DNA of 6,699 bases, taken from the IMG/VR virus record IMGVR_UViG_2529293265_000005; one strand, 5' to 3'. This DNA comes from a virus (taxonomy: Duplodnaviria > Heunggongvirae > Uroviricota > Caudoviricetes). The notes below the pieces were generated by a model. It had not been told where the DNA came from and did not search any database. It saw only the letters and a list, made by a program, of their open reading frames with translations. Made by a program: the position numbers and the translations under genes. The first letter of the stretch is position 1; the number at the start of each line of letters is the position of its first letter. Shown here one piece after another: positions 579-1,900 of this stretch.

Positions 579-1718
579 CACCACCGGGACGCGGATTCAT
601 ATCTTCCAGGTCGCGGCAGTCATTGGAAGAGTAAATTCCCCAGTTGATCCCGGTGGCGTAGGCTTCAAAACGGGACTTCATATCCCCGCGCAGTAACGCC
701 CCGGCGTTAAATTTGGCGTAATAAACGCCCTGCTTACTTTTTCGTACCAGTCCGGTGTTGATCCGCTGTTCGATGCGGGTCAGATACGGCACCAGTGAAT
801 AGTTGATAAATCCCAGCCCCAGCTCTTCGATATTGTTGAAGGTGGCGCGATCGGTGTTCTGCACCATGTGCAACGGCACCCGGAACAGACGACAGATTTC
901 TTCCAGCTGAAACTTGCGGGTTTCCAGGAACTGACTGTCCTCGGCGTTCAGCGCCATCGACTTCCAGTCCAGCCCCATTTCCAGAATCATCGGGCGGTGA
1001 GCATTGCCAAGCCCCGTGTGACACTCCTCAAAATCTTTCTTCAGACGCTCGTAAGCATCCGGCGTGAGCTTTTGTTCCGTACGCAACACACCGGATGTCA
1101 CCGCACCATTACTAAACAACCTGGCACCGTGCTCCTCGGTTGCCGCTGCCAGTGAAATGGCCTCACGCGCATACGCAATGGGATTCAGCCCGACAAGTCC
1201 ATCCAGCGTCAGGGTGCGCACATGCCAGATTTCATTCTGGGTCAACACATCCACGGAACCATCCGGAAACGTCACCTGATAAACCGGCTGCCACTGGCTG
1301 TTCAGCTTCGGTTCCACACAGCCCGGATCTATCGGAAGAAGCTCCACCACTTCTCCCAGTGCCTTTACCTTGTAGGCGTAAAAATTCCCCCGTAGACACA
1401 GGCAGACAATAACCAGCTCCCAGAATTCCTGCGGTGTCATGTAGCCATTAGGTTTTGCCGAAACCAACTTATGCAGTCGTTCATCCACCGCCCGTGTTTT
1501 CAGGGTACCGCTGATTTTGTAGAGACTGCAGGGCAGCATACCAACAGACTCTGCCAGCACCCTGACGCAAGAATAGACCGCCGTCAGGCGCATGGCCCGC
1601 TGGCTACTGATCCGCTTTCCGGTATAGGTGTCGTATGACAGCCCGATAGCATCAGCAGTTCTGCTGGCGTGGTCACCGGCACATCGCTTTTTCGTTGAAA
1701 TAATCCCGAAAAGAACAC
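579..1718 (-). pseudogene. HK97-family phage portal protein; apparent frameshift near the 5' end (about 1650-1660) and C-terminus truncated by the IS4 insertion at 578/579
   Basis: Body of track ORF 562..1809 contains portal-like motifs (MRLTAVYSCVRVLAESVGMLPC near the N-terminus, DLEDMNPRPGG near the C-terminus). The last codons VMPIS-stop are read from IS4 terminal sequence. No ATG or GTG lies in the body frame between 1718 and the conserved motif. A different frame has GGAGG, 6 nt, then GTG at 1718-1716 (overlapping the upstream stop as TAGTG) and encodes MFFSGLFQRKSDVPVTTPAELL before degenerating and stopping at 1586-1584. Confidence 0.6.
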
Positions 1719-1900
1719 TATTTACCTCCGCCGACAGACTGCCGTGTACGGTCGAGATATCGCGCCACCAGCCACGACCAGAACAGGCACAGCGCCCCGG
1801 CAACAACAAAACCCGCCGGGGGATAAATCAGCCAGGCACCATACGCCAGCAAAAGCGCACCCAGCACGCCCACCAGAGGCGCGAGAATCAGCATGATCAT
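1718..1900 (-). CDS. Hypothetical small membrane protein (60 aa, two predicted transmembrane helices, basic C-terminal tail)
   Basis: ATG at 1900-1898 preceded by GAGGT at good spacing, starting 11 nt after the terminase large subunit stop. Stop TAG 1720-1718 overlaps the putative portal GTG. Sequence [60 protein letters not shown] has two hydrophobic segments split by PPAG. It is on the sense strand and fills what would otherwise be a 190-bp gap in a tightly packed late operon. Confidence 0.55.

Follow-up and report, generated by a model that had tools for sequence, protein, structure and literature searches.

The 6,699-nucleotide (nt) stretch of the tailed-phage record IMGVR_UViG_2529293265_000005 (Caudoviricetes; the whole stretch is called the window below) carries all of its genes of interest on the minus strand, to which the coordinates given here refer. 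At 1718-1900 (stop codon included) a 60-codon gene resembling ymfR of Escherichia coli K-12 fills the junction between the gene of the terminase large subunit (TerL) and that of the portal protein. The assignment was made from the open reading frame (ORF), its translation, identity to YmfR and a match to PHROG 502. TerL (1912-3645, 577 amino acids) is intact, contains the Pfam domains TerL_ATPase and TerL_nuclease and belongs to PHROG 9. Its TAA stop codon (1914-1912) is followed by a spacer of 11 nt (1901-1911, CTGAGGTAATT) that carries the Shine-Dalgarno sequence GAGGT at 1909-1905, and the small ORF then extends from an ATG at 1900-1898 to a TAG at 1720-1718. The GTG start of the portal gene (1716-1718) shares one base with this TAG (TAGTG), and its own Shine-Dalgarno sequence, GGAGG at 1725-1729, falls within the final Gly-Gly codons of ymfR. 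A preliminary description, made from the letters of this DNA, had already given the coordinates, the 11-nt spacing, the GAGGT, the TAG/GTG overlap and two hydrophobic helices in the product, and all of these hold.

The same arrangement was observed in related phages. The same 11-nt spacer is present in phages ST64B, SfII and phiP27 and in the K-12 prophage e14, and in distant relatives the gap ranges from -7 to +13 nt. The SfII and phiP27 records annotate the portal gene from the overlapping base, and strings resembling GGAGG or GGGGG precede every overlapping portal start in the relatives. The C-terminal Gly-Gly is invariant in the YmfR family (1724-1732 in the window). Since the portal Shine-Dalgarno sequence lies in these codons, the invariance reflects a constraint at the nucleotide level and not at the protein level. 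Because of the stop/start overlap and the Shine-Dalgarno sequence in the last ymfR codons, ribosomes that finish YmfR can re-initiate on the portal gene. TerL, ymfR and portal are on one mRNA, and ymfR is a member of the late packaging and head operon of HK97-like phages of the P27/ST64B/SfII type. The SfII record also marks a "putative rho-independent terminator" inside the gene (SfII 2370-2419, codons 3-19), which we did not treat as functional; the equivalent window segment (1843-1892), which is coding sequence, folds into a hairpin of -17.6 kcal/mol, and a terminator scan did not report it.

The product of ymfR is a two-helix membrane hairpin. Its hydropathy profile has two hydrophobic segments (residues ~1-25 and 29-46) separated by YPPAG, and charged residues are confined to the C-terminal tail. 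An AlphaFold2 model built from a 22-sequence alignment has helices at residues 2-25 and 27-56, with a mean predicted local distance difference test score of 73. The positive-inside rule is well established, and by this rule we infer that both ends of the protein are cytoplasmic and the YPPAG turn is periplasmic.

The window protein is identical to K-12 YmfR at 58 of 60 positions (97%), and the two differing residues are both in the C-terminal tail. In strain MG1655, ymfR (b1150) belongs to the cryptic prophage e14; it begins 11 nt downstream of ymfN/aaaE, a remnant of the terminase gene, and shares one base with beeE, a remnant of the portal gene. Judged by identity and position, the gene at 1718-1900 is the orthologue of e14 ymfR. 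The two copies share their length, the 11-nt gap, the one-base overlap and a degraded prophage as their context; however, e14 has lost the N-terminus of TerL and the C-terminus of the portal protein by deletions, whereas in the window TerL is intact and the portal gene has a frameshift and is cut by an IS4 insertion sequence. Proteins 97-98% identical to that of the window are encoded at the same TerL-portal junction in ST64B (Sb3), phiP27 (L37) and SfII (SfII_03). These are intact, inducible HK97-like phages with an intact portal gene, a context which the window has lost.

The gene has therefore been named and catalogued before. RefSeq calls it ymfR in an E. coli locus 92% identical to the window, and the K-12 product is listed as "IPR020297 domain-containing protein YmfR". 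Sb3, L37 and SfII_03 are labelled "membrane protein" or "putative integral membrane protein", and PHROG 502 is described as "membrane protein". The small ORF had been put forward as the best candidate in this DNA for something undescribed. That claim did not survive the 97% identity to YmfR, the membership in PHROG 502 and the annotations in phiP27, ST64B and SfII; to find a named K-12 y-gene and catalogued phage protein family again is not news. One paper describes YmfR as uncharacterised and its deletion as phenotypically neutral, hence the use of the locus as an integration site (PMC9145139). Together with other e14 genes, ymfR is induced under SOS conditions in K-12 (log2 fold change 4.5; PMC10012262). 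Our literature search did not find a functional study of YmfR, PHROG 502 or DUF1056 (a family considered below). Neither the protein nor its distant relatives gave anything above threshold in scans of Pfam, NCBIfam and PADLOC, PADLOC-DB gave no defence-system match at E-values up to 0.1, and a sequence-profile search of the PDB with YmfR found no match. When the AlphaFold2 model was compared with the PDB using Foldseek, only insignificant, generic helical hairpins were obtained.

Other labels of the gene were also noted. In phage SfIV (KC814930) the YmfR homologue is not annotated, and orf-3 is named as the portal in the SfIV paper. Automatic annotation of several phages (e.g. ON470584 and PQ793804) has given the homologue the label "head-tail joining protein W". 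We considered this label and rejected it as a positional mis-annotation by analogy with lambda W. Like ymfR, lambda W is a small gene at the terminase-portal junction (between A and B). However, gpW is a soluble head-completion protein, whereas YmfR is almost entirely a hydrophobic hairpin and has no Pfam gpW match.

A length of 60 codons is no evidence of a gene by itself, as the window contains 78 ORFs of at least 30 amino acids, and it is conservation that identifies the small ORF as real. PHROG 502 matches the protein from end to end (E-value 2.8e-28; profile positions 3-57 of 58). Homologous proteins form 166 clusters, mostly of exactly 60 amino acids, from E. coli, E. albertii, Salmonella, Citrobacter, Yersinia, Hafnia, Klebsiella, Enterobacter and Buttiauxella. 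The ratio of nonsynonymous to synonymous substitution rates (dN/dS; Nei-Gojobori), calculated against four diverged loci with 58-65% protein identity, was 0.10-0.23, with dS above 1 and thus saturated. By this substitution pattern the YmfR family is under purifying selection, and 1718-1900 is shown to be a genuine protein-coding gene. The preliminary description had asked whether the frame is kept at the terminase-portal junction of relatives with synonymous-biased substitution, and it is. Intact ymfR in two dead prophages (e14 and the window) was also considered as a sign of selection at the level of the host. This was rejected, because a gene of 183 nt easily survives by chance and TerL, the terminase small subunit (TerS) and the HNH endonuclease gene are intact as well.

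We also considered that the small ORF might have arisen by chance or might belong to a longer 5' region of the portal gene. Pfam Phage_portal does match a TTG-initiated ORF at 562-1809 in the shifted frame, which overlaps the small ORF by 91 nt, and some published genomes (SfIV and SfV) annotate no gene at the junction. However, the overlap is spurious, because it results from a 1-nt deletion in the window and intact phages begin the portal gene at TAGTG. Together with the conserved frame, the dN/dS values and the matches to profile hidden Markov models (HMMs), which are decisive, this leaves such an explanation with a negligible probability; it can be taken as already refuted.

In the window the portal gene (579-1718, delimited by alignment with ST64B, SfII and phiP27) is a pseudogene. 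In that alignment 1 nt is deleted between 1657 and 1656, so that the frame is shifted after 20 codons and the GTG frame closes after 44 codons. At 578/579 the gene is interrupted by the end of an IS4 element (1-578, with the terminal sequence TAATGCCGATCAGTTAAGG from 578 downward), identified by Pfam Nterm_IS4, by three-frame translation and by the junction itself. The N-terminus of the IS4 transposase begins at 512, homology to E. coli prophages starts at 579, and about 34 C-terminal portal codons are gone together with the rest of the prophage. The deletion context was also present in six independent IMG/VR contigs (L005-L010), four of which share the IS4 junction. Thus, the lesions are features of a lineage and not sequencing errors, and the window is accordingly a degraded prophage that has become fixed in some lineage. 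The version with the IS4 junction was absent from the complete E. coli genomes in the collection, in which the best match was 92% identical from 579 onward. With the portal gene out of frame and truncated by IS4, the ymfR-like gene is a relic here, and a portal-linked function cannot operate in the window. The transposase gene of IS4 carries a frameshift of its own at ~230-236, inside the ORF at 189-512, where ...NRPFV continues as APSAVIQARQRLG in another frame; contig L010 has the same frameshift context.

The family was searched among 1.84 billion representative sequences (E-value of at most 1e-3). It comprises 408 clusters at 50% identity, nearly all of 50-70 amino acids, which share the core xxGLxGAxLxSYGAW(L/M)IYPPAGFIxxG with invariant G14 and G35. 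The part YGAW(L/M)IYPPAGFIxxG is retained in members ranging from Enterobacterales to Reyranella, Shinella and Rhizobium, and all 50 diverse members that were sampled match PHROG 502. When one genome per species was scanned with a 10-sequence alignment as the query, loci were found in Enterobacterales, Marinobacter, Pseudaeromonas, Reyranella, Shinella, Rhizobium and some metagenome-assembled genomes (MAGs). The downstream ORF matched Phage_portal in 24 of 25 loci and the upstream ORF was TerL in 21 of 24; four Reyranella MAGs (L120, L126, L127 and L128) have the hairpin ORF and an overlapping portal gene with no TerL recognised directly upstream. In almost all relatives the stop codon of the small ORF overlaps the portal start (TGATG, TAATG or TAGTG), and tight junctions on both sides are retained down to ~35% portal identity. 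A MAG labelled as Bacillota bacterium (L092) contains a sequence 97% identical to an E. coli phage and is therefore a mis-binned or contaminant contig. Three Ruminococcaceae-labelled MAGs (L122-L124) carry a family-like hairpin before a 31%-identical portal gene; since L092 is plainly an E. coli phage, such taxonomic labels were not relied on and are to be read with caution.

Occupancy of the junction was determined in 80 viral contigs whose portal protein is at least 70% identical to a Serratia representative. Seventy-nine of them carry a small ORF that ends exactly at the first base of the portal gene. The exception, L201 (1486), has no small ORF, and an HK97-type TerL overlaps the portal ATG directly. 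The last residues of the L201 TerL still resemble the C-terminus of the window TerL, and its portal N-terminus is altered to MNIFNLF.

Phages in which TerL and portal have different histories indicate with which neighbour the gene is inherited. SfV shares its TerL with SfII at 98%, whereas its portal protein is only 29% identical and its small ORF is very different. Conversely, phi467, L088, L096 and L103 have TerL proteins with 29-40% similarity, portal proteins with 73-97% similarity and similar small ORFs. Across 17 loci, similarity of the small protein followed that of the portal protein (Spearman 0.67; Mantel p ~4e-4) more closely than that of TerL (Spearman 0.33; Mantel p 0.046). As far as these comparisons reach, ymfR is shown to travel with the portal gene, not with TerL, in mosaic genomes.

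The preliminary description had started from the premise that HK97-type packaging modules run from TerL straight into the portal gene. This is correct for HK97 itself, which has no small ORF and in which TerL and portal overlap by one base, but it does not apply to phages of the P27/ST64B/SfII/e14 type, to SfV or to Sfi21. In SfV (L004, NC_003444) the supposed 99-nt gap between TerL and portal contains an unannotated two-helix ORF of 53 amino acids (2289-2450, MKSLIADVIGLAGFGLLTCGVYLQFGMAPALILSGALLLVGALAMARRGTRAA), whose ATG overlaps the TerL TGA and which scores 26 bits against the family HMM. This type of ORF is intact in all 80 loci of the SfV portal clade, with a median dN/dS of 0.18. The portal start given in the SfV annotation (2392) probably lies 16 codons too early, the GTG at 2440 being the likely start. 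Streptococcus phage Sfi21 (L215) encodes at the same junction orf59c (2424-2603), a DUF1056 (PF06341) protein. Like YmfR, orf59c is small (59 amino acids) and has two hydrophobic helices together with a short polar tail, and it is likewise encoded between TerL (orf623) and an HK97-family portal protein (orf384). However, it is separated from the portal gene by 17 nt instead of overlapping it, and its hosts are Gram-positive. Profile comparison of DUF1056 with the YmfR family gave an hhalign probability of 0.5%, and no Pfam cross-match was found for the window protein or 50 members. The likeness between the two families is a matter of either extreme divergence or independent acquisition. Some sources label orf59c as "scaffold protein" or "head-tail joining protein".

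Whether ymfR is a moron was judged by the definition in the sense of Juhala and Hendrix, as summarised in PMC3594210. A consensus scan, which weak promoters could escape, found no sigma-70-like promoter and no terminator on the minus strand within ~500 nt. The GC content at third codon positions (GC3) is 0.67 for the ymfR-like gene, 0.65 for TerL and 0.66 for TerS. Since ymfR lacks its own promoter and terminator, has a GC3 like that of its neighbours, is present at 79 of 80 loci and is induced with the prophage, it is not a moron. The view that it is an integral, translationally coupled late-operon gene is thus supported by these features and by the kept junctions.

The remainder of the window is a packaging and lysis region. 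Upstream of TerL are TerS (3642-4145) and an HNH endonuclease (4257-4607), both unambiguous from Pfam and PHROG matches, as are TerL, the portal gene and the IS4 transposase, and in agreement with RefSeq names; an HNH endonuclease beside TerS is the usual arrangement of HK97-like cos packaging. Further upstream, and apart from the ymfR-like gene, a complete lysis cassette was identified from the ORF list and the RefSeq names of the 92%-identical E. coli locus. It consists of an S21/EssD-type holin (5608-5922), an RrrD-like endolysin with an N-terminal hydrophobic segment (5111-5608) and Rz (4650-5126), with Rz1 (4712-4894) embedded in the +1 frame of Rz. An Rfam scan of the whole window found no RNA family.

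As to function, the role of YmfR that we consider the likeliest, although with low confidence, is that of an accessory factor which would be expressed late, be embedded in the membrane and work jointly with the portal protein, a possibility suggested by analogy. YmfR would be inserted into the membrane while it is made, so that the coupled portal protein would be synthesised at the membrane. There, portal rings and the initiation of proheads could be concentrated or nucleated by the self-packing, glycine-rich hairpin, and the membrane-bound gp20-gp40 initiator of phage T4 would be the functional parallel. In T4, the portal initiator needs gp40 in order to assemble on the inner membrane (PMC9958956). 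Such a role would be helpful and not essential, because HK97 and one clade member (L201) do without the gene. Several points weigh against this proposal. Co-inheritance with the portal gene is no proof of a shared function, because the stop/start overlap alone keeps the genes together. What is conserved in the protein is its membrane-embedded core together with the periplasmic turn, while the 13-residue cytoplasmic tail, which offers a cytoplasmic portal protein its only obvious contact surface, is the most variable part. As L201 belongs to the same clade and lacks ymfR, and HK97 does as well, the gene is not essential for this portal. YmfR has no sequence similarity to T4 gp40 (hhalign probability 0.1%), and no experiment tying YmfR to portal or heads was found in the literature.

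The main alternative is that YmfR is a late-lytic membrane effector without an assembly role, which late in infection might, for instance, block DNA entry by superinfecting phages or modulate membrane potential or the timing of lysis. The slot between TerL and portal would then provide low, late expression at a fixed ratio, and the overlap would weld the gene to portal afterwards. This would suit the conservation of the membrane core and periplasmic turn beside a variable cytoplasmic tail, the use of the same low-expression slot by two non-homologous hairpin families (YmfR and DUF1056), the ability of HK97 and L201 to manage without the gene, and the PHROGs category of the family, "moron, auxiliary metabolic gene and host takeover". 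There is also ample precedent for exclusion proteins that are small and reside in the inner membrane, such as HK97 gp15 (PMC3594210) and T4 Imm (by annotation). However, the gene has no own promoter or terminator and a composition like that of its neighbours, and a gene that is repressed and induced with the prophage would not protect the lysogen. No PADLOC match and, in profile-profile comparison, no similarity to T4 Imm were found. Deletion of ymfR has no reported phenotype in K-12, in work that did not include phage challenge (PMC9145139). Moreover, one portal clade retains the gene from Enterobacterales to Reyranella and Rhizobium, which is unusual for exclusion factors specific to a host envelope. 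On balance we consider a pure effector rather unlikely.

A holin, an antiholin or a small membrane toxin, in the form of a permeabilising hairpin like that of class II holins, was judged very unlikely. The protein resembles these in its ~60 residues, its two transmembrane helices with N-in/C-in predicted topology, its basic C-terminal tail and its glycine-rich helices, but only in a generic way, as these are traits of class II holins and pinholins at large. The window has a separate, complete lysis cassette (4650-5922) with its own S21/EssD-type holin, and in the loci examined the gene was never beside an endolysin gene, its neighbours being TerL and portal. A dual-start motif with a charged residue (Met-Lys/Arg-Met) is not conserved, and Pfam gave no holin match. 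In addition, a His-tagged ASKA ymfR clone induced with isopropyl β-D-thiogalactopyranoside grew and was recovered alive in a screen (PMC10299036), although this is a weak argument. It is slightly less probable still that the ORF is a cis-acting coupling device whose translation delivers ribosomes from TerL to the portal start while the peptide is unimportant. The stop/start overlap and embedded Shine-Dalgarno sequence of portal are indeed the most invariant features, and where the ORF is absent (HK97 and L201) the portal gene is coupled directly to TerL. However, the peptide is under purifying selection (dN/dS 0.10-0.23; 0.18 for the SfV type), its length and two-helix architecture are fixed, and a 15-residue motif is common to phages of alpha- and gamma-proteobacteria whose portal proteins are only 31-41% identical. 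The remaining probability belongs to functions other than those considered here.

A bolder form of our proposed membrane factor acting with portal would extend to a large share of HK97-like phages, in which YmfR and, independently, the DUF1056 hairpins would serve specifically to nucleate portal rings and start proheads at the membrane. The synthesis of each portal subunit would directly follow that of a hairpin from the same mRNA, and the invariant glycines of the hairpin might allow a self-assembled ring that templates or tethers the dodecamer. We think this general form distinctly unlikely. If it were true, membrane-initiated head assembly, documented so far only for T4 (gp20-gp40), would be widespread.

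What is new here is the purifying selection on the family, its breadth, the coupling to portal, the unannotated SfV counterpart and the non-homologous DUF1056 analogue. A tiny membrane protein is encoded in the midst of the head-packaging module, which is soluble and cytoplasmic and has been studied better than any other part of tailed phages, and the reference annotations (SfV, SfIV and the "protein W" records) miss or mislabel its gene. The pattern worth keeping is the start/stop coupling to portal across phages of alpha- and gamma-proteobacteria, the following of portal in mosaic genomes and the unrelated look-alike in Sfi21. It is a modest lead; nevertheless YmfR gains a concrete, testable hypothesis, and SfII, SfI and phiP27 offer easy genetic systems.

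HK97 gp15, a YebO-like moron product that mediates superinfection exclusion, is also a small inner-membrane phage protein, and its gene is likewise embedded in an operon of virion-structural genes (PMC3594210). However, gp15 has its own promoter and terminator and a deviant GC content and is expressed from the prophage, within the tail operon (PMC3594210); YmfR has none of these moron traits and no Pfam YebO match. T4 Imm is another small inner-membrane phage protein, with no sequence similarity to YmfR. T4 gp40 differs from YmfR in its size (114 amino acids), in not being a two-helix hydrophobic hairpin and in being encoded far from gene 20. It nevertheless serves as the model for the role proposed here, as a small, inner-membrane-associated phage protein that promotes portal-initiated prohead assembly (PMC9958956).

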